Positions 2,751-32,034 of a stretch of 64,000 bases of DNA are shown one piece after another. Under the pieces are notes generated by a model. The model was not told the origin of the DNA. It saw only the letters and a list, made by a program, of their open reading frames with translations, and made no database searches. The position numbers and the translations under genes are program-made. Origin of the DNA: Narcine bancroftii. Lineage: Eukaryota. Positions within the stretch are counted from its first letter, which is position 1, and each line of letters starts with the position of its first letter. The stretch is from assembly GCF_036971445.1 (NCBI RefSeq), contig NC_091470.1, positions 357,244,001 to 357,308,000 on the forward strand, written 5' to 3'.

Positions 2751-3072
2751 TCCCTGTGAAGACTTTACAAGATTGTATAAAAAGGGGGAGAAATCAGCAT
2801 ACAGGAGAGAGATTGAAAGCTTGGCTGAATGGTCTACAACAACAACAACCTCGCATTCAATGTCACCAAAACTAAGAAGCTGATTGTAGACTTTGGAGTG
2901 TACATTCCAGTGGTAATTGGAGGATCAGAGGTGGAGAAGGTGAGTAAATTTAAATTCCTGAGAGTCTCTTGCTGAATCCAATGCACTAATGTCATCGTGA
3001 ATGAAGAAAAATGTCAGCACTCGTACTTCCTCAAGAGTTTGCGGAGGCTTGGTACAACAGCAAAAAACCCTA

Positions 3073-3198
3073 GCAAACTTTGACAGATGTAATGCAAACT
3101 TCAACAGATGTAATGCAAACTTCGACAGATGTAATGCAAACTTTGACAGATGTAATGCAAACTTCGACAGATGTAATGTAAACTTCGACAGATGTAAT
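3073..3198 (+). repeat. Minisatellite, 6 x 21 bp (GCAAACTTYGACAGATGTAAT), inside a Rex1-like fragment (~2755-3230)
   Basis: Direct inspection. Confidence 0.95.
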
Positions 3199-4470
3199 GG
3201 CCACAATGTGTACTGATGTTGGTCTCCCCTTGTTCCTAATATCACTTGTATTGAAATAAAGACATTTCATATCCTCCAACTGAATACAATTATTATGCTC
3301 CCTGCCCCTGCTCTTTCCTCTGCCTTCTCTTACTGGTTCCCATCTCCCTGCCAAACTTGTTTTAACCTCCAGAGCAGCACTAGAAAGCCTTCCAACAATG
3401 ATATTGATTCCCACCCCCCCCCCCCCCCCCCCCCCCTCCAGTTCAGATGCAAACTGTTCTGCTAATACAGGCCCCACCTTGCCTGGAAGAGTGCCCAATG
3501 ATCCAGAAATCTGAAGGCCTCCATCTCTTTAGCCACCTGATAAGATGCATTATCCTCCTTTTTCTAACTTCATTTGCATGGTGAACGTTCCTGAGAATGT
3601 TGGCACCTCACCCCCTTAACTCTCTTTGCAGGACCTCAACACCCTTCCTAGCCATGCCATTGGACTAGGATATCTGCCTTCCCTCCTGAGAATGCCATGA
3701 ACTCGATCTGAGATATTCCAGTTCTGGTGGAAGCCTCCATTCCACAAGATAAAAGCATGCTCTTTTGAATCCTTTATCTTGACAGGTTTGCATAAAAGTC
3801 GTGTTTTGTTTTTCTCTTTAATCTCAAAGTATTACATGTGCTATTTCCAAAAAGATAACTAGTGTAGAATAATATCTTTTTCAGTCTTGTAACTATCCAC
3901 TCAGCTTTTGCAAATGCAAAATGAAACTGTCCTGCTTTCATAGAATGGAGTATTTGAAAGAAGTAGTTAAGAAATCCCACAGCTACCAATACTGAAATCC
4001 AAGTCATAAAGTGGAGAATGGGAGTCATTATGTTAGAGGTGAAGGATAGATGGAACCCAGTTGGAAGGAAGGGGGTAAAATATGAATAATAGGTGGAAAA
4101 AAAGCAGAAGGGAGAGAGAGGTGGAGACAGAATGGAAAAGGGAACAAACCTCGGAGGACCAAAGGAATGGATCAGGTGTAGAGCCAAGGGGAAAAGAGGA
4201 GGGAATTTCTCCACTGAGCTGTACCTATGCATCAATTTTTACTCCTCCTTGCTCCACCTGTCACGTACTGGGTCCTGGCTTTCCTTCTCTTCATTTACGC
4301 TAGCTATCTTCCATCTCTCCTGATGAAAGTCTCAACCTGAAATCATTACTGTTCCTTTTACCCCCTTCTCAGACTGCTGAATTTTGTTCTCTCAGCATCT
4401 GTTGTTTCAATGTGACTAAATGATAATGAAGCAGTTACAGGATTTTGGATTTTAATGATTTTTGGTGTAT

Positions 4471-4896
4471 TGTTAAAGTCGATCCGCGTTGTAATAAAAC
4501 AAACAACTGCAGAACCAAAGAGCATACAAACACGTCTTTATTGCATTATGCTAGCGGGAGTGAGGAGTACAAAGAAAGAGTAAACAATGTAACCCATGCT
4601 TTTCACTGATCCCCACTCAGAGTACACAGTATCCTTGCAGAACTTCTGTTGGCCCTTAGACAGTTGCCTACATGCAGTTCTACATATTTTTTACTATTGG
4701 CAATCTTATGTTCTTGCAACTTCTGTTCTTCACAGCTACTTCTGTCCTTCACCGTTTCTGTAACTTGGAACCCAGCAACTTTCTGATAAACCATATCTCT
4801 CGCTTAATACTCCCATCCCAGTCATGCTATGCTCTGCAGTGTGGACTCTTTAATCTACTAAAGCATTAACTCTTTGTTGGCCAACTTACCACAGCA
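4471..4896 (-). repeat. Putative 3' LTR of the ERV
   Basis: On - strand: PPT GGGAAGGGGG (4910-4901), TG start near 4896, AATAAA (~4544-4539), ends ...GACTTTAACA at 4471; no partner 5' LTR seen. Confidence 0.55.
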
Positions 4897-5239
4897 GAAG
4901 CCCCCTTCCCATAATTATTCCATGATAACTTATTTGGTTTACCTTCCTATTCTACATCCTGTTGGCGACTATTCACATGACCTGTAATCTGCAGGCTTCA
5001 GCAATATATATAGCTTGAGTTTTGAGAAAAGGATGGTCTCGGTTCTTGCTTCTTGCAGCTGTGCTACCAAAAGAAAACAGTTTCTTTAACCGATACTAGT
5101 ATTTTCCCAGAAAAAATATTCTTTTTTAAACCTTCTCTTACTGCTCTAATTTATAGAAAGGATATAAGCAAATAAAGCAAATCTAATCTGTAATCTATAA
5201 TATCGTGATAATATAACGTTAGTTGTAAGGCATGAATGG

Positions 5240-5795
5240 ATCATACAAAAGAATCGCAAAACAAAACAACACAACCAATAGAGTGATGGCTAGGATGCAT
5301 AATTCCTGAGTAAATGCTGTTGTCCATCCCTTAAAAGGTCACCAAGATGGTCTCAGGGGGGTTGTAATTGTGGAATTGTTTTCCTACTTTCTGCACCTCA
5401 TATATCTGTTTTTGATGTGGTTTGCAAAATGGGTAATATTTTCTGAAGTGTTGGATACAAATACAACATTCCTGTCCTACTCCTTCTTTTTCTGCCAAAA
5501 GTAAATCTAAAGCTAATCGGTTTTGTCAGGCCTCTGTTCATATGGCCGCTACTTCAGGGTTGAGTTTGTGAATTTGGGTCTGTTTGTTTTCCTCAATCCA
5601 AGCTGTTATAACACGCAGAGTCCAGTTGGAGTGACATCTCCATGCTAGATGTTCTGTATCGTTAAAGGGTATTGCTACCATAGGAAACACTTGATCACTA
5701 TAGTTCGGCATATGGGTACAGGCCCAACAGTGGGACACAGTTAGAGTTTCAACATACATTAAGGACATGAGTAAATAAGTATTGTCATACAGTAA
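5240..5795 (-). pseudogene. ERV env remnant, internally deleted (signal-peptide part at ~8190-8280, split off by CR1)
   Basis: SU motif HCWACTHMP...PMVAIPFN; TM immunosuppressive domain QNRLALDLLLAEKEG (5525-5481) followed by ECC; hydrophobic anchor LCILAITLLVVLFCFAILL. Confidence 0.85.
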
Positions 5796-8189
5796 GAGGG
5801 CTGGATGGACTAGAGTTTGTCAAATGTGTGCAAGATAGTTTTCTTAATCAATATGTAGAGGAACCAACTCGGGACGGTGTAATACTGGATCTCCTGTTAG
5901 GGAAAGTGATAGGTCAGGTATCTGAGGTTAATGATGGAGAGCAAATTGGGTCTAGTGATCACAACTCTATCAATATAAGGGTAGTTTTAGGGAAGAGCAA
6001 AGAAGGGCCTAAAGTTGAGGTTCTGGATTGGAGAAAAGCAAATCTCGAAGGAATAAGAATGGCTTTGGGGAGTATTGAGTGGGACATGATTTTTTTCAGG
6101 AAAGGATGTAAATGAAAAATGGAGAATATTCAAAAAAGAAATTTTGAGAGAACAGAGTAGATATGTCCCAGTGAGGATCAAAGGAAAGTCTGGAAGTCAT
6201 AGGGAGCCTTGGTTTTCAAGGAATATTAGAAATTTGGTTAGGAGAAAGAGGGAGGTGTACAAGAGGTATAAACAGCAGGGTGCTGAGAAATTAAAAGAGG
6301 ACTACAAGGAGTGTAGAAAAAATCTTAAGAAAGAAATTAGAAAGGCCAAAAAGAGGCACGAAGAGGCTTTGGCAGACAGAGTAAGAATAAATCCAAAGGG
6401 TTTCTATAGGTACATTAAAAGTAAAAGATTAGTGAGGGGTAGAATTGGACCCCTTGTAGATAGTGAGGGTAGGCTGAGTGAGAAGTCAGAGGAAAGGGGG
6501 AAATTTTAAATGATTTCTTTTCCTCGGTATTCACTAGGGAAAAAAAATATTGTACCAGTTGAAGTGGAGGAAAATAGTGGGGAGGTTGTGAATCATATAA
6601 GGATAACTGAGGAGGTAGTGATGGCAGTGTTAAAAAAGATAAAGGTGGACAAATCTCCGGGTCCGGACAATGTATTCCCAAGGACACTCAGGGAGGCTAG
6701 TGTACAGATAGTAGGGCCATTAACAGAGATATTTAGGATGTCTCTGGTCACGGGGGTAGTGCCAGAGGATTGGAGGGTGGCTCATGTTGTTCCGCTGTTT
6801 AAAAAAGGGTCCAAATGTAAGCCAGGAAATTATAGACCTGTGAGTCTGACGTCTGTAGTGGGTAAGTTGATGGAAAGTGTTCTGAGGGATGGCATTTACA
6901 AATATTTGGAAGAACAGGTAGTAGTCAGCATGGTTTTGTCAGGGGTAGATCATGCTTAACAAACCTTATAGAGTTTTTTGAGGGGGTTACAAAAAAGATT
7001 GATGAAGGGAAGGCTGTGGATGTTGTCTATTTAGACTTTAGTAAAAAGTTCCCCACAGGAGGTTAGGAAAAAAGGTGGAAGCATTAGGTATAAATAAGGA
7101 GGTAGTGAAATGGATTCAGCAATGGATGGATGGGAGGTGTCAGAGAGTACTGGTAGAAAGTTGTTTGTCCAATTGGAGGCCGGTGACTAGTGGAGTTCCT
7201 CAGGGATCGGTCCTGGGTCCACGATTGTTTGTTATATATATTAACGATCTGGAAGTAGGGGTGGTGAATTGGATAAGTAAGATGATACAAAGATTGGTGG
7301 TATTGTGGACAGTGAGGAAGATTACCGTAGCTTAAAAAGAGATATAGGAAAGCTAGAGGAGTGGGCTGAGAAATGGCTGATGGAATTTAATACAGATAAG
7401 TGTGAAGTGTTGCATTTTGGAAAGGCAAATCTAAATAGGTCATATACATTGAATAGTAGACAATTGAGGAGTGCAGAGCAACAAAGGGATTTAGGAGTGA
7501 TGGTAAATAGTACCCTCAAAGTTGATACTCAGGTAGATAGAGGGGTAAAGAAGGCATTTGGAATGTTGGCCTTCATAAATTGGAGTATTGAATTCAAGAG
7601 TTGGGATGTTATGATGAAATTGTACAAAGCATTGGTGAGGCTAAGTTTGGAATACTGTGTGCAGTTTTGTCACCGAATTATAGGAAGGATACAAACAAAA
7701 TAGAGAGAGTGCAGAGAAGGTTCACGAGAATGTTGACAGGATGTCAAGGTTTGAGTTACAGAGAAAGGTTGAGCAGCCTGGGGCTTTTTTCTCTGGAGCG
7801 TAGAAGATTGAGGGGGGATTTGATAGAGATGTTCAAGATTTTAAAAGGGACAGAGAGAGTCAACGTGGATAGGCTTTTTCAATTAAGAGTGGGGGGATAT
7901 TCAAACCAGAAGCCATGGTTTTAGATTGCAGGGGGAAAATTATAAGGGGAACATGAGGGGAAATTTCTTCACACAATGGATGGTTGGGATGTGGAATAAG
8001 CTTCCAGCAGAGGTGGTTGAAGCAAGGACGTTATTTACATTTAAGAAAGACTGGATAATTACATGGAGGGGAGAGGATTGGAGGGGTATGGACCACGTGC
8101 TGGTCAGTGGGACTAGGAGGGTGGGGATTTGTTCCGGCATGGACTAGTAGGGCCAAACTGGCCTGTTCTGTGTTGTATATGGTTATATG
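5796..8189 (+). mobile_element. CR1 LINE, 5'-truncated ORF2 with frameshifts, inserted in the ERV env
   Basis: [47 protein letters not shown] motifs; CR1-type 3' tail. Confidence 0.93.
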
Positions 8190-8279
8190 CCATGTCTGGT
8201 TTGGAGTCTCTATCAAGTCACTCACTACTGGGATGCCCAAAGCACCTATAAGTATAATAATTGTCTTCTGTTATGTCAT

Positions 8280-9313
8280 GCTATCTTTTTTCCAGGGCCA
8301 ATCTTTTTACAGTTGGTGTGATGTATCCACCAAGATTGCCCCTCAACCTTTACTGCAATGGGTTTGGTGTGTAATACTTGCAAGGGGCCCTTCCCAATTC
8401 CTTATCAGAACATAATCTCAGGGCTGGATTTTCGGTAAGGGCCCTTCCATGTTGTCCTTTTTTCTGTGAGCGTTACGTACCTGCGCATGCAAAGTCTCAA
8501 CAATTTCAGTTCGTTCTTTCACTTAAGGGCATGCAAATCAAGACACACTTCTACATTTTTATCTGCTGTCCAGGGTGTACGCAGCAGTTTTCCAAACAAT
8601 ATTTTTGCCAGGATTAGTCCTGTGCTAGTGTGTGGTGTTATTCTCTTTTCAAAAATGGCCAGCGGGAGTCCTTTTAACCAGTTTAGTTCTGTTTCTTCAG
8701 TTAGTTTGGCCAACTTATTGTTTAATGCTCCATTTGTTCTTCCCATAATTCCAGCTGCCTGTTAAATTGCTGTTTTATTCTCAGATGGTGGCATAGCTCT
8801 TCATTTACTTCAGCAGTAAATGCAGCCCATTTTCTGAGCTAATACTAGTCGGGGATCTAAATTGGGGTATTATTTCCTGTAATATAATTCCTACCGTTGC
8901 TTCTGCTGTCATGTTTACTGTTAGTAATGCCTCTATCCATCTATTGAAAAAATCAATAACAACAAAACAGTACTTATAGCTGTGTATGCTAGGCAATTCT
9001 ATAAAATCAATCTGTACACACTCAAAAGGTCCTGTAGGCATTCGTGTCCTACCCGGAGGGCACTTAATTGCTTTGCCAGGATTATTTTTCTGACAGATAA
9101 TACATTCCTATGCCTTTCTTTCTTTGTACCGCTTTTCTTAAATTAGGGTGCCACCACATTTGTAATGTCCCTCCTACTATTCCCTCCTGACCCAAATAAT
9201 TAATGTATATAATTCATTGATATAGGTGAAAATGCATCAGGTACACAAAGTTGTCCAGCAGCGGTGGTCCATAACTGAGCATCGGGATTTTTGGTGCACC
9301 CATGCTGTTTCCA
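8280..9313 (-). pseudogene. ERV integrase remnant
   Basis: WWHP..CIICQKNNPGK zinc-finger part; PTGPFECVQIDFIELP..VIDFFNRWIEA core; RTNGALNNKLAKL..W..LPLA; C-terminal QVLHTKPIAVKVEG..WIH. Confidence 0.88.
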
Positions 9314-10026
9314 AGTCAAGTCAAGTCGTGTTTATTTGTTGTTCACACCATTAACATTGCAGTGTACAGTGAAAAACGAGATAGCTTTTCTCCAGACCGT
9401 GGAGCTAGTTATTTATATTGATGAATTACATCAGAAACTTTTTTATAAATAATGTATCACATAAATATCATTACAAATGCTTGCCTGGAGTTCAGAAGCC
9501 TCACGGATTGGGGGAGAAAGCTGGTCGTGAGGGCCCCAACGCTTCGGTACCTCTTCCCGGATGGCAGGAGGGAGAAAAGATTGTGGGAGGGGTGTGTGGA
9601 GTCCTTCACAATGTTTATAGCTTTCTGCAAACAATGGCCATTATAAATGTCCCATCATGGCAGGGAGAGAGACACCAATGATCCCCTCAGCAGTCCTTAC
9701 TATCCACTGCAGGGACTTGTGTTCTGAGATGGTATAGTTCCTGAACCAGGCAGTGATGCAGTTACATAGGATGCTCTCAATTCTGCCCTGTAGAATATAG
9801 TGAGGGTGGAAGCTGAACTTTCCTCAACCTCCACAAGAAGTAAAGGCATTGTTGGGCTGGCTTGGCAATGGATCTGGTGTTGGAGGACCAGGAGTAATTC
9901 TCCACACACCAAGGAATTTGGTGCTCTTGACTACCTCGATGGTGGAGCCGTTGATGGTCAGTGGAGAGTGATCTCCCCCACCCCCCACTCCAACCCCAGG
10001 CTCTGCTGAAGTCCACCACCACCTCC
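9314..10026 (-). mobile_element. Rex1/Babar-like LINE 3' fragment inserted in ERV pol
   Basis: EVVVDF..., IEVVKSTKFLGV, LYFLWRL; short tandem tail (caagt)n at 9312-9327. Confidence 0.75.
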
Positions 10027-10460
10027 AAAGTTGCAAGTTCAAGTTGATTTGCAGGGGCATCCCCATGTCAGGCAGGGTCTGTCTATTCAACAGTTGTTTG
10101 TCGTCATCTGAATATGGATAGCAGGAGCCTTTATGGTTACATCCGCTTGGGCATTCTCCAGGGAAACGAGGTCCTAGGCATCACACTTAATCATGGCCAG
10201 GTGGGAAGGTTAGGACAGAGAAGCCAACAGGTTGGACACAAACGTTGCAGTTTTAAGAAGGGCACCCGAGGAGGTCAAGAATCCACGATACTGCCACAAA
10301 ATTCCAAAATCATGGGCAACTCCAAATATGTATCGCAAGTCTGTGTAAACGTTAAAGGGTATATCCTTTAATGCAGGAGCGTGTTAGTAGAAAGAGTTCA
10401 GCTTGTTGTGCAGAGTGGAGGTGATGGAATGCCTCTACCACTGTATCAGTATCTCATTAG
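10027..10460 (-). pseudogene. ERV pol RNase H remnant
   Basis: HSAQQAELFLLTRSC, FNVYTDLRYIFGVAHDFGILWQYRGFLTSSG and ENAQAD motifs typical of class I retroviral RNase H. Confidence 0.85.
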
Positions 10461-10502
10461 GGACTGGCAAGTGTGATTATTTTTGGGCACTTTTTATTCC
10501 TA

Positions 10503-11188
10503 GAAAAGCTGACCTGTATCTTCTGATGGCAGTGGTTCAGGTACATGCATCCCTGCTTCATAATCAAAACTAAATTTCTCTACCAATACCACACCTCCTT
10601 GTTCTTTTAGCCTAATTGCTGCGTGATAAAATATTGTGCCTTTGGCATTGTACTGAAAGCAATTGTTCACAATCAAATTAAAATCTTCTTCAAATTGGTC
10701 AAACGTCCGATATCGATAGCCTTCAAGCTATTTCTTCATTGTTTGGTAGTCCATTGGCATTTTGATGTGATCCAAATAATCTTTTAATGGCGCAGGTTCA
10801 CCAAAGATGTTTCCTGTGTCTGTCTTCTGTAGCTGTTCCAACGTGAGGATAAGGAAGGGGGTCAACTGTAGCTCCATTGCAAACTGCTATATCTTGACCT
10901 CCTCACTCTTTAGCTTTTCCCTTTTCCAGATTAACTTGATGAGGAGCCATGCTCTTTCTAAGTCATGCTGCAGTCACTGCCAAGATTCAACTGCTCTTTT
11001 AGTGCACAATTTTTCTCCTCTGATTCTCCTTTCTCTGCATTTCACGGAGACTGCAAGTGGGACTGTAAACGCCGAGGAAGTGGAACACCATTTCTTGACT
11101 GTCGCTTTAATGCCCAATAGCTGTGAAGCCTCTGCATGAATTGGCTTTTATGTTTAATTGATAGTCGACCTGTGATCTTACTTAATCT
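10503..11188 (-). pseudogene. BRPF1: Intronless, decayed BRPF1 (peregrin) cDNA fragment: EPC-II/coiled-coil region and bromodomain
   Basis: Manual translation: [47 protein letters not shown]...HDLERAWLLIKLIWKREKLK...[41 protein letters not shown]...[34 protein letters not shown]...GMHVP; four internal stops and one frameshift. Confidence 0.92.
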
Positions 11189-11189
11189 G

Positions 11190-11850
11190 CCAATTTAATT
11201 CTACAAAGCTCTAGTGAAGCAGATCTCATTTTTGTTTCTGACACATTATAGCTTTCTGTTAGATCTGGGCTTTGTTTTTACACGTTCAGCTTCTCCTCCT
11301 CCTTCATCGAAACTAGTGAGAGACTGGTCTTGGTGGGGGGGCTGGGGGAGGTTGGTTGCTGTAGTGGGGGTTGTGATGGCTGGGGTACATATGGGGGTGG
11401 TCTTGCCAACAAGGAATCTTCCAATTCCTCCTCATTCTGCAAGAATAGGGTCGCCATGCCCAACAACGGGTCACCTTGTTCCTAACGTTGCCATATATTT
11501 CTCTACCTTCGGGTCACCCTCCTTTATACATACTGCTATCCCTCTTCTATTTGCTTTGTCACTCCAACTATGTGCCTTTGTCCTCTCTCATTATTTTACG
11601 CCTTCCTCTTTCCATTCTTTTATTTGTTTTTTCCACTTTTTCCCTACATTCTTTTCCCATAATTTTTCTGCTTTCTCTATCACCCTCACTGACCACATGT
11701 CACCAATCAACCATTCTTCGTTGCCTAACCTTTAAAAAAAAATGCTGCTGACATTTGTCGATATTCCTTTTGATGTTTTGGGTGCAAATCACACATTTGT
11801 TGTACCGGCCTCTTCATCCTTTTTAAAACCTGTAGGGGCTGTTGGCATAA
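11190..11850 (-). pseudogene. ERV gag N-terminal remnant (matrix-like region and PPPY late domain)
   Basis: Basic W-rich segment RLGNEEWLIGDMWSVRVIEKAEKLWEKNVGKKWKKQIKEWKEEG followed by LLARPPPYVPQPSQPP; upstream of pol remnants on the same strand. Confidence 0.6.
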
Positions 11851-14800
11851 TGACTAGGCAGTTGGGCTTAGTGGAGGAGCACTGTCTCTGCTCCCCACTC
11901 TCCTGGGTCCACAAGCTCATCGAGTCTGCCCTGTCATTCATTCATGAGCTGATCCATTTTCCCACTGCCCGGCCTTCTCCCTATATCCTTTGATGCCCTG
12001 GCTAATCAAGAACCTATCAGTCTCTTCCTTAATATACCCAATGATTTGGCCTCTGCAACCACCCTCTGGTTGAAGAAACCCATCCTCTATTCTAAGTGGA
12101 CCCCCTTCAATCTTGAAGTTGTGCTCTCTTTCCTAGACTCTCCCAGCATGGGAAACAACTTTTAATATCTGCTTTGTCCATGCCTTTCAACTGTCAAAAT
12201 GTATCAGTGACATTCAAAATCTTTCAACTACACCAGTGGAAGCACTTCCATTATAGCAGCTGCAGTGGGGCCACCAAGTTTCAATGAAGGAACAGTACTA
12301 TGCTTTTGAGTCTGTGTGTGACTGTGAGGAGGCTCTTTGCACTGCCCAAATTTTGAGCAGTACAAATATACACATCAAAATGTTGCAACGCTAAAACAGG
12401 CACTAATAACTCCTCAATGGTTGAATAATTTTGTTGATGGTCATTAAACTTTTTCGAGGAGTATGAAATAGGATATTCTACTCCATCACCATCCTTCTTC
12501 TGTAATAGTACTGCACCAACCGCTTTGTCACTGGCATCCACGGCTAAAGAGAATGGCTTTTCAAAGTTAGGGGACATAAGTACAGGCTGATGGCATAAAA
12601 TTTAACTTCAGAAACACTTCCTGGCATGCATCTGATCAGATAAATTTTTCTTTCTTTCTTTCCAAGTAGTTATGTTAATGGAAGTGCAATTTCTGCAAAA
12701 TTTTTACAAAATCTACGATAGTAGCCAATCATACCTAGAAATCTCTGAAGAGCTTTCTTATTTCCGGGGATAGGGAACACAGTGATAGCCGATACTTTCG
12801 CTCCAACCGGTGCCACCTGTCCCTGACCTACCACACAACCCAGATAAATTACTGTGGCATGTCCAAACTTACTCTTGTGCAAATTCACTGTGAGGTGTGC
12901 TTCCACCAGTCTCTGATATAACTGCTCTAATTCAAGCATGTGTTCTTCCCATGTATCCATACTAATTACTAAATCATTGATATAGGCCCCTGTGTTCTCT
13001 AAACCCTGAATCACTGCATTAATCATTCTCTGAAATGTGCCAGGTGCATTTTTCATCCCGAAAGGCATAACATTATACTCAAACAATCCTGAAGGTGTAA
13101 CAAATGCAGAAATCTCCCTACCTTTCTCTGTCAAAGGAACACACCAATATCCTTTTAAGAGATCAATCTTTGTAAGAAACTCAGCCTTCCCCACCTTATT
13201 TATACAATCATCTATTCTAGGAATAGGGAACGCATTAGTCTTTGTCACCATGTTTACCTTTTGATAATATGTACAAAACCTAATTGAGCCATCTGGCTTA
13301 GGCACCAGAACACAGGGTGAACTCCAATTGGAACTGATTTTTGGATGATGTCATTTTTGAGCATATAATCCATCTCTTGATCCAACAATCTGCTCCTTTC
13401 CTGATTAACTCAGTAAAGATCCTGCATAATAGGCTTAGCATCACCGACCACATCATGACAAGCCACAGTAGTTCTTCTTGAAACATCTGGGAATATATCC
13501 TTAAATTTCATAAGTAATTTCTTCCCTTTCTGATTTAGTCAAATGCATTAACTTGGTGTCTAAGTTTTACAAAACTATAGAATTTTCCAACTTGGGGCTT
13601 ATCACTTTCTGTGCTCCATGACCTTCCACGAAACTTATCTCCTCCTTACTTTCCTCTATAACTAGCACCTTGGTTGAAATACTAGTCTCCTCCTCAGTCA
13701 TTTTCTCAAAGTAAGGTTTAAGCATGTTTATGTGACAGACCTGTGTCTCTCTTTGACGATTGGGTGTATCAATGACATAGGTGACCTGGTTAATTTTTGA
13801 TTTCACCTTTTATGGTCCTGAAAATTGAGCTCTCAAAGGATATGCTTCACCACCAATGCCTTTAATTAAATTCTCATCTCCAGTATCTGTCTCCTCACCA
13901 AAATTCAAAACGTTGCTTAATACAAGCGATTGGGCTGCTCCAGTATCCCGCAAGATTTTAACTGGCACTTGATTGGATCCTTCTTTAACTGAAATGAAAC
14001 CTTCAGTTATGAATGGTTTAAAAATATCCGTAACTTTTTCACTCTGAACACAGACAGTTGGTACCACCCCTTTCTCTTTCTTCCTTTTCAGTACAGGACA
14101 ATTTGCTAAAATGTGCCCTGCCTTTTTATAATAGCGGCAAATAACACTCAAAAATTTTTCCTTCACCCATTTCTCTTCATCTCTTCCTGTAACCTCACTT
14201 CTAGATTTTCTTTCTACTCTACTTGGATTATCAGCAGTATTCCTTTGAAAGGTTTTCCCTGGTGTCCACTTAGACTCATGGGTTAAAGCATATTCCTCTG
14301 CGAATTTAGCCAATTCTTGCCAAGTTTTTATATTTTTCTCTGCCAAGTACACTTGAATATCATCAGGAACATAATTTTTAATCTCAATCAGAATGATTTC
14401 CCTCGATAAATCAAAGTTATTTTCTACTTTCATTGTGGCACATCACCGATCAAAACACAACCTTCCTATAAGCAAAATCCAGGTAAGATTGGGTTACTGC
14501 TTTTTTAAAACTCCTGAACTTTTGTCTATAAGCCTCTGGGACTAGTTCATAAGATCGGAGTATAGCCTGCTTTACAAATTCGTAATCAGCTGCTTGTTGT
14601 ACCGTGAGACATGAATCCACCTGTTGGGCTTTCCCTTTAAGAACACGTAGCAGGAGTGACCACTGGTCTGGTGGCCATTTTAAATTTACAGCTACTTTCT
14701 CAAAATGTTGAAAATACTGGTCTATTTCAGCTTCCTCAAATGGAAGAACTAACCTCACTTCTCTACTGACTAGAAACCTCACCTCTTGACCAGCACGTGG

Positions 14801-15347
14801 ATTTTGGGCTTCTACCTCTCCTTGCATTAGGGTCAGCTTTAATTTAGCTAGTTTTAGCTCATGCTTCTGTTCTTTCTCTCTCTCCTCCCTTGTGGCTGCC
14901 CTTTCCTCCATTTCTGCCTGCCTTACTGCTTCCCGTTCGGCTTTCCTTTCTGCCTCTCTTTTTTCTTCTAACTCTAATTTTCTCAAAGCCAACTTTCTCT
15001 GAAGTTTTCTCCTTTGGAAACTGTTCTAACGCAGCTTCTTCAAATACCCCCTTTCCTACATAGTGCTTAACAATCTTTTGGGCAATTTCCTTTTTTTCAT
15101 CCCAGTTCTTACTGTAAGAAGTTTTAATTTGCCAACTATAACCATCAGTTCTGACGTTTTAGCCATTTTTAAATTAACCACTGAAGGGTTCGCTATGAAC
15201 TGGCCAATATTCATAGTTGCTGGTTTTCCTGCTGGTGATTTATACACTCATCGTTTATTTTTAATTTCAAGCTGGAGGTTGAGTCAAACTCAGACAACTG
15301 ATAACTAAGCACAAGTTAATTGTCCCTAAAGCTTCCATATTGGTTTG

Positions 15348-16089: not shown

Positions 16090-17074
16090 GTGGGCTATAT
16101 GTCCAGTTTATCTATTTTGATGGAATTCGGTGGTTAGGTAGGTTACTTCAAATATCACTTAAAAGTTAACGATGAGACTATTGGTCTGGGTATGTACACA
16201 AAGTAAAAATGGCAAATTTCTTCCCTGTAAGAATGTGTGAACTACGTTTTTTTAAACTGCTCATGGTTTGTGTTCACCGTTACTGAGGCTAATTTTATTT
16301 CCAGCTAATTTGATTAATTTCTCAGCTGCTTCTGTCTTGATTATTGTTCAAAGATGTGTGTGTTTTACCATTAGTCTCTTCTATACCTTTTCTGAGACGC
16401 TATGCTCCACTGCAGTTACATTATACTCGCAAAAGAAATTGTTCATCTGTTGATTGATTTTAAAATTAATTTTTTTTCCACAAGGCAACATTGAAGTTTT
16501 CCACATTTCTCAGAAACTGAGAACTGAAATATGTTCATTAGAAATTTATTCCGATCCTTAGAATTAAAGTGAGGCAATAATATACAGGTTGAAACTCTTT
16601 AATCCAGTGACTTTTGGACCTGGCTATTGCTGGACCACAGAAAATGCTATAAAATAGAAAATGCACAGAAAATAGCTGTCAAAGGTGTGGTAGGTGCCTT
16701 GATGAAACCCATTTTCTAAGCTGAAAGGATCAAATATATCACAGATAAAATCCTGGTTAGTGCAATGCCTTTACAATACTAGTGATCAAGACCAGGGCTT
16801 GAATCACATACTGTCTGTAAGGATTTGTATTAATGGTGGCAGATTCAAAACATGCTGGACCATGGGAGTTGTCGGACCAGAGAGCACTGGATAATGAAGG
16901 TTCAACCTGTCATTGCATTTTTGCATCCATGGATAAACAAAGCACCAAAAAAAGTCCCTGGTTGGGACTTGGTCACAACACGATCTGGGCAATGGGGAAA
17001 AATTGCATATTCAAATTAAATTTTTAAAAAATCCTGGGTTTTCAAAACTAATCTTTCTGTTTTCCCCTCTCTAG

Positions 17075-17178
17075 TAATGTTACAGCCTTTTGACTATGAT
17101 CCCAATGAGAAAAGCAAACACAAATTCATGGTACAAACAGTCTATGCTCCAGCGGGTGCTGCAGATATGGATGCAGTA
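17075..17178 (+). CDS. VAPA: VAPA coding exon (MSP domain; equivalent to human exon 3)
   Basis: Polypyrimidine acceptor tttcccctctctAG|TA ATG TTA CAG; encodes (V)[34 protein letters not shown]; donor GTAAGT at 17179; 104 nt. Confidence 0.95.
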
Positions 17179-18204
17179 GTAAGTATTACATTTTACCAGA
17201 AAAGATTTGCTGTGTTTCCTACAAAAGCTGGAAGTGATCATTTACAGCTAGGCTACAATTTAAAGAAAAACTTGTTTTGTATTTGTGTACTGCATAAAGT
17301 TTTATTGATTACAGTTGGTGTCTTTTAAAATCAATTCTTCCCGTCCTGTTCCTAACACTATGTCAGTTTGTCAGGTGGGAGAATCTTAAAGAAAAGCTGA
17401 CCTTCTATTTCCTAAATCTATTAGTGAAAAACATGGATATATTATATAATGATTACTGTATGTTTTTGATAATATTTGGAGGCATTCAAATAATGTTCAA
17501 TAAAGGTTCAAAGGTTCCTTTTATTGTCACTTAATGATGCTTTAGAGATGCAATTTCCATGATGTACTTCAACTTTTGTCTGCCTTAATGCAGTTACCGT
17601 GAGCATTGCCTGGCACCCCTAACAATAGGAGAAAGAGAAGCAAAAGAGAATTCCTTCAGACCCTGAGTGTCCATGGATTTGCTTGCAGTTGCACAGACTC
17701 TAGCTCAAACCATCAGCAGCCTGAGCTCTGGATCCAAACCTATGAGATGATCAGGAAGTTCTCAGTGCCTGAGGCCCTTTGGGAGCCCTTCTTGCCCTCA
17801 GCACCCTCTTGGTTCTGATACCTGGTTCCCATGAACACTTCTCCAGCAACCTGTAGCCAATGTGGGTCCTTCAGCCTCTGAGCCCCTCACTGGTCCACTG
17901 TTGTGGTCACTATCCCCATTGGGTCATCTCCTAGGCTTCTCCTCAAGAGAGGGTGGGGGCAAGTGCTCTCCCCATTTCTGATGCCCTGTGCCAGTCCGTT
18001 GCTCTTCTGGAGCCTGCAATCCCTCATGGTACATTGCCCAGCACAGGCACAACCATCTTGGGCACAGACTCCCATGGTTGCTGGATTTTTAAAAAAATAT
18101 GCTGGCTCCTTTAACAGGCTGTTTAAAGCCTGTACAGATCTGTTAGCATCAGGACCGGATGGTAGGACCCTGCAGATCAATGCTGTGTTGTATAGAGTTA
18201 ACAT

Positions 18205-22628: not shown

Positions 22629-23179
22629 GTAAGAAGTTGAAGAAAAGTAAAAATTACGTGTCTGAATTCTACAAGTTGTTAGGATTTTCTATATTGAGCA
22701 GCTGCGACATTGCTGCTGGTACGATTGGATTTGATTTTGCCTGATATAATCGTTACTGTTTATACTCAATGAACATGAAATAATATCATTCATTAACTGC
22801 AAAGACAGAGCATTTTAAATTTGGTTAATTTTTCCCCCCTTTTTTAATCTGAATATTAGAAAAACTAACATGGGATTATACACTGGGAGGATTTAGGTTT
22901 CTCGAATTTAAGAAATATTATTTATCAGTACAAGCAAGATTTTTATCATTCTTCTTTGAAGAAGACAGTCCCCCCCCTTGGATCCAAATGGAATCGAATT
23001 CAATAAAAGAGAAGACAGTGAAGGACTTTATTTACAAGTGGAATGTTAAGTTAATAACAAAAAAGACAGCTAACCCTATATTAATACAAATGATTAGAAT
23101 ATGGCAAGAAATAAATGAGTGTATTGGGAGGGGAAAAAGAAGTATATCACCAAGAACACCATTATGTAAAAAGGTGTAA

Positions 23180-26100
23180 ACTCTCCAGTAGACTCTCCAG
23201 TATGTATGAATATGTGTGTACACAAAACAAAACAACCCCTTCCCCCTCCCTTTTCATAATATAAATCCACACTCACCCTGTCAGGGCTCACATTTATATC
23301 GATCATTAAAAAAATTCTCAATGGGGAAGTAATTTGCATTTATACCATAGCAGCATCTATTATTGTTCTTTTTATTATTGTAGATATAATTGGGACCCTA
23401 TATGACCCAAATATAGCTTCCATATCTTGATAAATACATCATGTTTGTTCTTTAAGTTGTATGTAATATTTTTTCCATAGTATGCAACTATTCATCTCAG
23501 CAGTCCATTGCGCTATTTGTAGAGGGGAGTTAGATTTCCAATTAATTGCAATACATTCTTCACCACTGCCAAGGCTATTTTAACAAATGAAATTTGGAAT
23601 TTAGTTAGTTTATACCTTATTTCAATAAAGTTGTCCAAAGGATAAAGCTCTGGATTACCCGTGAAGGCCACCCCTGTTACCCGGTTACCAGAAAAGTCAC
23701 TTTCACACATTAGTACATAGCATGCAAGAATGTTCCAATTTCTGTCCCACACCTAAAACACATTTCTGATATTTCAGATTTTGATTTATGCAACTTTTGT
23801 GGTATGAGATGTAATTGTAGGAAATTATATTGCACTAATCCATATCAGGCATTTAAAATTGATGTCACATTATCCAAACACCAATCAGACCAACACCTAG
23901 ATCCGACTCCCACCTCTCTCTCTCCCTCTCAATCAATCTCTGTAAACCTAGTTTTGCAATCTCATTCTGGAGAGCATAGTACATCTTAGTTATAAATAGA
24001 GGTGTATTTCCCCAGCCAAATTGCTTGTTCCATTTCACTAATTTCAAATGGGGACAAATTTGGCCCCCATCTTTCTCTTAGGAATAATCTTAGCTAGAGA
24101 AAACAAAAGAAAGTCCCAATAGCTATTCTGTATTTATTTCTTAATTGTTCAAAAGACATAAGAAATCCCTCCACATAGTCATCAATATATCTTATTCCTT
24201 TATCATACCATGAATTCAATATTTTGTTAATAGGCAGGAACACCTTTTTACATAATGGTGTTCTTGGTGATATACTTTTTTTTCCCCTCCCAATACACTC
24301 ATTTATTTCTTGCCATATTCTAATCATTTGTATTAATATAGGGTTAGCTGTCTTTTTTGTTATTAACTTAAAATTCCACTTGTAAATAAAGTCCTTCGCT
24401 GTCTTCTCTTTTATTGAATTCGATTCCATTTGGATCCAAGAGGGGGGACTGTCTTCTTCAAAGAAGAATGATAAAAATCTTGCTTGTACTGATAAATAAT
24501 ATTTCTTAAATTCTAGAAACCTAAATCCTCCCAGTGTATAATCCCATGTTAGTTTTTCTAATGAAATTCTCAGCATTTTGTTATTGTGTCGGAATTGGCT
24601 TATGTAATTATTTAAATATTTTTTTTTAGGTAGTGCAATAGGGAATGATTGAAAAAGATACTGTAATCTTGGCATCACTGTCATTTTAATATAATTTACT
24701 CTTCCCACTAAAGTAATTGGCAAGTCTTTCCATTTCTATAAATCTTTCTCTATTTTTTGTAAGAGGAGTGTAATTAAACTTAAATAAGTTTTATAATTTA
24801 TTATCTGTCATTATTCCTAAATTTTTGATGTCTTTCATTTAATTCTACTATCTTTTTGATATCTTTCATAATCAAAAATTTTCAATGACATTATCTCACT
24901 CTTATCCATATTTATTTTAAAACCTGATATTCTTCCATATTTTTCTAATATTATTTGTAATTTTATCAAGAATTCAGCCGGATCAGACTCATATAATAGC
25001 ACAAAATTGGCAAATAAACTAATTTGATGTTTTTCGTCCAACTTTGAAGCCTTTAATATCCGGATCTCTCATTATAATCTCCGCCAGTGGCTCGGTAGCT
25101 AGGATAAAAAGTGCTGGGAACAGAGGACACCCCTGTCTACTCGATCTACTCAAGGGAAAAAACACTGACACCTGATTATTAGTTATAATTTTGGCTTGTT
25201 GTTTATGATAGAGTTTTAATCCAATTTGTAAATTTTCTGTCTATACCAAGTTTTTCCAATGTTTTAAATAGAAAAGACCATTCTAATCAATCAAATCCTT
25301 TTTCTGGATCTATGGAAATAATTATATTTGGATTCAACTTTGATTTTCCCATATGTATTAAATTAAATAGTCTACCTAGAACCTTTGAAGTACATCTTCC
25401 TTTGACAAGTTCCAACTGGTCTGTATGTATTAATTTTGGTAGATATTGTCCCAGTCTATTAGCTAATGCCTTTGGCAATATTTTATAGTCAGCATTCAGA
25501 TGTGAAACAGGCCTATATCACTTTGGTATCACTCTAATTATAGCAGTTGAGAAAGATTCTGGGAGGGTCGTGGTCTCCACCGCCTGGTCCAATGCATCAT
25601 AAGAGGCATCAATAAATCTTTAAATTGTCTATAGAATTTGGGAGGAAACCCATCCTCCTCCAGAGATTGGTTAGCTTGTAAAGTACCCAAAGCTTTCTTG
25701 ATTTCTTCTCTTATGAAAGGGGCATCTAAATCAATTTGTTCTATATCTTCTAATTTTGGAAGTTCAACATTTGTTAAATATTTGTCCATCTCATTTTCAT
25801 CTCCTAATAATTCTGATTTATATAGTTTCCTATAATAATGGCTAAAATATTATTTATTTCTTTTATTTCTTTTATTGCATTTATCATTCGACCTCTGTAT
25901 TTACCTGCCAAGATAAAACTTTTATGCGCCCGCTCTCCTAATTAATAATATTTTTGATTTATTTTTTATAATTTTTTTCCCTTCTATATGTTTGTAATCT
26001 GCTATATTTCAGTTATTTTCTCTAATACTCTGTTTTTATTGCAACCCTGCACCCTGATATTCTTTTGCCAATTTTGTTACGTTTTTCTCTAAACCATCCA

Positions 26101-31740: not shown

Positions 31741-32034
31741 GTGGGTTCTGGGGTTCCAAGTCCATACTTCCCAGAAGGTGACCATGCAAGTAAGTGGGGT
31801 AGTAAATAAGTCATACAGCATGCTTGCCTTCATAGTGTGTGGGTTCTGGGGTTCCAAGTCCATACTTCCCAGAAGGTGACCATGCAAGTAAGTGGGGTAG
31901 TAAATAAGTCATACAGCATGCTTGCCTTCATAGTGTGTGGGTTCTGGGGTTCCAAGTCCATACTTCCCAGAAGGTGACCATGCAAGTAAGTGGGGTAGTA
32001 AATAAGTCATACAGCATGCTTGCCTTCATAGTGC
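31741..32034 (+). repeat. Tandem triplication of a 98-bp unit within a CR1 fragment (~31660-32590)
   Basis: Units start at 31741, 31839 and 31937 and appear identical by eye. Confidence 0.93.

Follow-up and report, generated by a model that had tools for sequence, protein, structure and literature searches.

The window analysed here, a 64,000-nt stretch of the Narcine bancroftii genome (positions 357.24–357.31 Mb of contig C5, NC_091470.1), carries on its minus strand the remains of a retrovirus that contains part of a host gene. A six-frame reading between 8200 and 12400 gives, on that strand, gag with a PPPY motif, then BRPF1-like peptides that stops and frameshifts break up, and sequence for RNase H and integrase; the Pfam matches in the copy are Bromodomain and rve. 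The preliminary description of this DNA had reported an endogenous retrovirus (ERV) with co-oriented BRPF1 sequence between gag and pol on the minus strand, and this is confirmed for an element larger than first noted; it was also right that CA, NC, PR and RT are absent. Its boundaries needed more correction. What it called gag (11850–11190) is indeed gag with PPPY, but homology starts only near 11808 and 11187–11256 is a host exon; the proposed insert (11188–10503) is indeed BRPF1, but really spans 10465–11256; and the gap of about 50 nt before RNase H is short, as described, but 10465–10491 within it is the start of another host exon.

Read along the minus strand, on which all features lie unless stated otherwise, the copy opens in the 5′ part of gag (MA and the p12-like region with PPPY; 11257–11808), which aligns at 70–79% to other copies. 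The BRPF1 insert (10465–11256), made of six spliced host pieces, then takes the place of CA-NC-PR-RT. Its first piece, E0 (11187–11256), is a captured 70-nt cryptic exon of the BRPF1 intron after the PZP exon, 90% identical to C11:9262529–9262598, where a GT donor follows. Next come two coding exons, E1 (11030–11188; 94% to C11:9264440–9264594), which we take to be the EPC-II region of BRPF1, and E2, the coiled region (10897–11028; 90% to C11:9266739–9266871). E3 (10780–10900; 83% to C11:9269099–9269228) encodes the first part of the bromodomain and E4 (10494–10782; 86% to C11:9269344–9269650; Pfam Bromodomain, E 2.9e-8) the remainder. The last piece is the decayed start of exon E5 (10465–10491), which agrees with the beginning of the host exon in 22 of 28 alignment columns; it is 45 nt long in other copies. 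Neither a poly(A) tail nor a target-site duplication (TSD) was found at the insert, again as described earlier.

Beyond a linker of about 10 nt (10455–10464) that is neither host nor adjacent pol sequence, the viral genes resume with a pol remnant encoding RNase H (10060–10454), 77% to another copy and represented in relatives by Pfam RNase_H matches below the cut-off, and continue with an integrase remnant (8261–9313; Pfam rve, E 2.1e-8). Between these two lies a later non-LTR retrotransposon insertion (9314–10059), present in this copy only, seen as an alignment gap against the other copies, of very high depth and classed by eye. A second later insertion, a CR1-like LINE on the plus strand (5800–8190; ORFs present, class by eye), sits within env, which resumes on both sides; the env remnant itself (4953–5788; 78% to another copy) retains a motif that we liken to an immunosuppressive domain. 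The 3′ LTR (4471–4919) is 76–79% identical to 5′ LTRs of other copies. The window copy is 5′-truncated, lacking the 5′ LTR, primer-binding site (PBS), leader and gag start codon, and no 5′ LTR occurs elsewhere within the window.

The surroundings of the provirus hold other elements. Just upstream of its truncated 5′ end, decayed pieces of gag, protease, RT and RNase H belong to a Ty3/gypsy-like element (12281–15025, minus strand); this RT-bearing element is unrelated to the BRPF1-carrying family. At 17041–17180 the plus strand has an exon with a VAP-like MSP domain (Pfam E 4.6e-5, below the cut-off), suggesting that the provirus is placed within or next to a gene for a VAMP-associated protein, in antisense orientation. 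The window also contains a 21-nt tandem array (3052–3219), a perfect 98-nt triple repeat (31741–32034), and a 323-nt inverted repeat pair whose arms are 1062 nt apart (22855–24562).

The donor of the insert is the host BRPF1 gene, a single match cluster at C11:9.26–9.27 Mb where tblastn lays out the full gene. The best solved-structure matches of the host exon are Peregrin/BRPF1, and it is 97% identical to Hemitrygon and 96% to Amblyraja peregrin, which bears out both the naming of BRPF1 and the early guess that the host was a cartilaginous fish. In the window insert, five distinct stretches align to the host gene at 83–94%, in addition to the decayed start of the sixth. Introns occur in the host gene at all five joins, so that the parental region is not a single exon, and in copies aligned on both sides of a join the exons abut directly in 44/46, 14/14, 6/6, 10/10 and 18/18 cases. 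The insert therefore derives from spliced RNA, and the earlier view of a defective provirus in which spliced BRPF1 RNA replaces internal viral genes holds.

The host intron that contains E0 follows the 513-aa PZP exon. E0 runs up to a GT donor, each of its three reading frames contains stops, and it is absent at its join from five annotated chondrichthyan BRPF1 isoforms (P0001–P0005). The last 32 nt of E0 and the splice donor occur twice, identically and about 1 kb apart, in the same host intron (C11:9261589 and C11:9262567; repeated stretch at L032:1589–1628 and 2567–2606), which appears to be a recent duplication or conversion of the cryptic donor. One of the annotated isoforms, Hemitrygon X2 (P0001), skips exon E2, indicating alternative splicing in this part of ray BRPF1.

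The window copy is one of many. Searches with BRPF1, gag and a further insert termed X5 (see below) led to 87 loci, with three more bringing those examined to 90. BRPF1 pieces occur in 65 of the 87 and in all three of the others, giving 68 loci on 12 contigs, each with BRPF1 adjoining viral sequence. This is a lower bound, as the E1 search scored the best 40 of 91 candidates and the insert-X5 search the best 40 of 138; a DNA search with window positions 10400–11300 gave at least 62 matches (best 40 of 96 candidates). Copies that are nearly complete retain TG..CA LTRs together with a primer site; 4-bp TSDs were found in three of four elements with both ends, two of these three bearing BRPF1, and the TSDs are distinct. 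True LTR pairs enclose the insert in 11 of 18 repeat pairs, the other seven having been dropped as not LTR pairs, and K2P distances of the 11 range from 0.12 to 0.26 (median 0.17). Considering the shared junctions, LTR pairs and 4-bp TSDs together, the chimera replicated as a unit, as had been proposed. An absolute age was attempted with the rate of 7e-10 per generation stated in PMC10587355, but the outcome of about 1e8 generations for 8% per LTR is implausible and no age is given.

Relatives match MLVIN_C at E 1.1e-6 (28.7 bits, under the cut-off of 29.2) and Gag_p30 weakly (E 0.024), a gamma-type TM motif was judged by eye, and RT survives as fragments only. A search with the integrase gave one match, without a name, and distant PDB matches to foamy virus and HTLV integrases; an RT fragment had no match. 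The PBS resembles the 3′ end of tRNA-Ser, and no tRNA gene was found at five loci checked, of 76 motif sites genome-wide. Exactly the same primer site is apparently used by a different, younger-looking LTR family (L218–L221; 76 sites genome-wide), four of whose sites are clustered within 3.5 kb at C9:177890791–177894258. Two BRPF1-less copies, L169 and L170 (C8:235.84 Mb and unplaced C187), are identical over gag and are probably a haplotype duplicate or a recent segmental copy in the assembly; L170, with RT fragments kept, may be near a helper type. Some copies have grown tandem repeats internally, including a 42-nt unit in integrase, a unit of about 30 nt after insert X5 and a duplicated E2/E4 join (L113:1790–2532; L196 after insert X5; L123:3110–3304).

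Four BRPF1-less relatives run on into CA from the same point of gag at which lineage A (defined below) enters BRPF1, and thereby reveal how the 5′ junction is built. At that junction, virus and host share 5 nt of microhomology. None of the four relatives has a GT donor at the junction point, and a splice-made junction was therefore rejected; the 5-nt match and the missing donor fit a template switch. The same relatives set the gag frame. Past the lineage-A junction, this frame meets a stop at codon 3 in seven and at codon 6 in two of the 10 copies that could be aligned (the other six of 16 lack the junction or do not align), and the tenth has a deletion. With the gag frame stopping within six codons in 9/10 copies and E0 closed in all frames, the Gag-bromodomain fusion once suggested for this element is not supported. 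The gag frame also stops by codon 61 in 38/38 loci bearing insert X5, before E0 wherever E0 could be placed, which is weak evidence since decayed copies stop anyway. At the 3′ junction, the BRPF1 frame enters that of RNase H in only two of 12 short-pol copies; a bromodomain-integrase fusion was rejected, being out of frame in the other 10, and in most copies a stop terminates the insert frame a few codons beyond the junction.

The family falls into three lineages. Lineage A (16 loci, including that of the window) has the order gag-E0-E1-E2-E3-E4-E5 start-RNase H. Lineage B (21 loci) has gag-X5-E0-E1, a short viral piece and the start of E2, followed by a deletion into E4 and a longer pol remnant. 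Lineage C (20 loci) has gag-X5-E0 and part of E1, after which capsid follows again. The remaining eight of the 65 classed loci are mixed. Bromodomain sequence has thus been lost from 41 of the 65, the 21 B copies lacking the first half and the 20 C copies all of it. In a gag tree of 43 rows, A and the BRPF1-less relatives fall on one side and B and C on the other, a split supported at 100/100, so that the insert sits on two viral backbones; otherwise the tree is star-like, and selection acting while the family still replicated would hardly be visible. The linker of about 10 nt after E5 is common to A and B, and the sequence after E1 is common to B and C. These identities make it likely that B arose by recombination, taking its 5′ part from a C-like and its 3′ part from an A-like element.

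Insert X5 is a further 240–340 nt in the gag of B and C (for example L028:1780–2120, minus strand; about 138 candidate loci). DNA searches of the assembly gave no host-like locus for the insert (best 40 of 138 candidates) or for its 3′ part (23/23 scored), and the 100 kb around BRPF1 held no match. A protein search yielded no source among 150 of 175 matches scored, four frames against Pfam gave nothing, and Atlas gave only leads under 0.8. One new-looking match was considered as the source and turned out to be another copy. Insert X5 may represent a second captured RNA.

Independent contigs from four of 13 runs listed were compared with the assembly. Run X5 comes from another sample of this organism and a separate study, and one of its contigs is identical over 11160–11964 and crosses the gag junction, so that the junctions are indeed backed by independent data. 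Identical contigs also cross three exon joins (runs X1 and X5) and the RNase H junction (run X1, possibly the source sample). None of the runs listed is recorded as RNA; run X5, guessed to be so, covers the window copy evenly, flanks included, and thus says nothing on expression. In organism C (run X8), a 212-nt contig spans the E0–E1 join with 15 differences, alongside RNase H and IN pieces; in organism B, a 151-nt contig of depth 2 is identical across the E3–E4 join and may come from a close relative or carry-over. With the joined form present in a second species, the family likely predates this one.

Decay and selection were assessed by comparing 65 copies with the host frame, CpG sites excluded. 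Private changes amount to 386 nonsynonymous and 109 synonymous, against 383 nonsynonymous expected, and are thus neutral; 27 of 133 private indels keep the frame. Lineage A differs from the host near fixation at only two nonsynonymous and five synonymous sites, possibly through host-side changes, and the near-fixed differences in E1, E4 and E5 are common to other lineages. Such low numbers imply that the copies spread soon after capture. Changes found in two or more lineage-A copies number 49 nonsynonymous and 38 synonymous, and only 6 of 500 neutral star-model simulations were as low in nonsynonymous changes; the ratio is under 1 in 16/21 A/AB copies. Fisher p values run from 0.015 to 0.10 across four lineage-A tables, and B shows little or nothing. 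Of 68 carrier sets, 10 recur, a mostly random pattern that suggests mutation hot spots. The synonymous excess in lineage A is weak and marginal among many tests. No intact BRPF1 ORF exists in the 56 copies with a match, the longest open stretch being 114 of about 256 aa, and a co-opted intact retrogene was rejected on this ground.

The reading that we favour, at a probability of roughly 0.74, is that the window copy belongs to a multi-copy ERV family that acquired BRPF1 exons by template-switch capture and spread them as a helper-driven passenger. The observations behind it are the anatomy, the five missing introns, junctions common to different copies, TSD-flanked LTR pairs, the stops that follow gag at its junction, and the neutral decay of integrated copies; from these the following course can be envisaged. 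Spliced BRPF1 RNA that included the intronic cryptic exon would have been co-packaged with the virus. Reverse transcriptase would have switched to it where the p12-like region ends, at the 5-nt match, and then returned into pol. The product, keeping LTRs, PBS and leader, would have been packageable by intact relatives that supplied helper proteins in trans. Recombination of co-packaged genomes could then have carried the insert between the two viral backbones, and trimming would have produced the full form in A, the internal deletion in B and the first two exons only in C. Counting against this passenger reading are the synonymous excess in lineage A, the missing source of insert X5 in B and C, and the fact that no intact helper virus was found.

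The excess would find a place if the captured piece had worked for the virus, which is unlikely. Lineage A would then have made a truncated BRPF1 that has the EPC-II region and bromodomain but neither PZP nor PWWP. Translation would have begun internally in E1, through re-initiation behind the short Gag or on a spliced RNA, and the product would have acted as a dominant-negative chromatin reader aiding expression, cell growth or germline spread. It is similarly doubtful that such a protein interfered with MOZ/MORF complexes or protected the provirus against silencing, which would make the family a fossil germline counterpart of a v-onc virus, derived from a cryptic-exon isoform and exchanged between two viral subfamilies. 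The whole bromodomain retained in A, the few near-fixed differences, the closing stop just past the 3′ junction and the shared synonymous excess agree with a working product, and crocodilian captures described in PMC4299795 are under purifying selection. But there is no Gag fusion, the fixed differences are explicable on the host side, the carrier sets are as hot spots predict, the bromodomain was lost in the more numerous B and C lineages, and the excess is marginal. Classic read-through transduction is also improbable: a former provirus in the BRPF1 intron would have activated the cryptic exon, and its chimeric RNAs would have recombined with helpers, perhaps repeatedly, insert X5 being lost intronic or proviral sequence. 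This would account for an insert that begins at an intronic exon and for two backbones that both carry the same leading exons close to one position in gag. Yet the present intron and the flanks tested hold no LTR, gag or insert-X5 match, the lineage-A junction has microhomology in place of a splice donor, and the single 3′ linker of A and B points to one capture of the 3′ part.

Far less probable still is a LINE-made processed BRPF1 copy that inserted in a provirus and was followed by deletions, an idea already largely refuted. The genome is LINE-rich, and two LINEs did later enter the window copy, but the insert shows neither a poly(A) tail nor a TSD, the viral genes are replaced and not interrupted, and the sequence 3′ of the junction is single-copy. 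No free retrocopy was found either: with E3, all 12 non-host matches (13/13 scored) lie in proviruses; with the host exon upstream of the insert, the three matches (3/3) are the gene and two likely paralogues; and the remaining E5 sequence has a sole match (1/1), the host gene. Finally, an assembly artefact or chance juxtaposition is hardly credible, with nothing found in its favour, and is refuted by 68 diverged loci with shared junctions and by identical contigs obtained from another sample in a separate study.

The family documents retroviral gene capture in a cartilaginous fish on a large scale and in a good state of preservation. Since at least 68 copies, insert-less relatives and the donor gene occur in the same genome, the junctions and later recombination steps are directly readable. 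A captured host fragment can evidently reach high copy number on a defective ERV without a Gag fusion, and caution is warranted in that gag plus host cDNA need not mean an oncogenic virus. An ancient splice variant of BRPF1 is preserved in the copies as well, one whose intronic exon occurs in none of the annotated isoforms examined. Should the weak sign of selection in lineage A prove robust, the family would represent a retrovirus that used a chromatin reader.

Acutely transforming retroviruses such as MC29 and Abelson MLV carry gag-onc fusions. As in these viruses, host cDNA replaces capsid to pol after MA/p12 and the element is replication-defective, with helper dependence probable; the likeness noted at the outset is one of layout only. 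Unlike them, the BRPF1 elements have no in-frame fusion, are fixed in the germline, and show as a possible sign of selection no more than the weak synonymous excess of lineage A. The TG..CA LTRs, PBS, 4-bp TSD and PPPY, with a possible MLV-type integrase C-terminus and gamma-type TM motif, resemble class I (gamma/epsilon-like) ERVs as described in PMC6001957; a genus-level placement near its clade Mu is suggested by host range only. The features of a LINE-made processed pseudogene (mRNA 3′ end, poly(A), own TSD) are absent.

No published report of BRPF1/peregrin capture by an ERV was found among titles and abstracts of the openly accessible literature on ERVs, gene capture and cartilaginous fish. 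The BRPF1-carrying retrovirus is thus real, replicated and apparently undescribed, and the early remark that no such case was known stands for BRPF1, but the kind of event is known and has published precedents. The closest are the chimeras of LTR-mediated retroposition described in PMC5131818, including HERV-K/FAM8A1 as cited there. The family has their hallmarks, an intronless insert in an LTR element, replaced ORFs, microsimilarity or a linker, and further rounds of copying. By the account in that source, a partial spliced mRNA likewise replaces internal ORFs, with junction microsimilarity, a short de novo linker, further non-autonomous copying rounds and possibly several donor RNAs. The BRPF1 family differs from the chimeras described there in its at least 68 loci, two backbones, old age (LTR K2P 0.12–0.26), cartilaginous fish host and intronic cryptic exon at the front. 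The crocodilian lineages CrocERV29 (KIT ligand) and CrocERV31 (nectin3), described in PMC4299795, are likewise germline ERV lineages of a non-mammalian vertebrate with captured host mRNA in several copies. As presented in that source, they carry whole ORFs between pol and env or replacing env, in 6–9 copies and under purifying selection, whereas the BRPF1 family carries a fragment in gag-pol, out of frame with gag, that has decayed neutrally and been progressively deleted.
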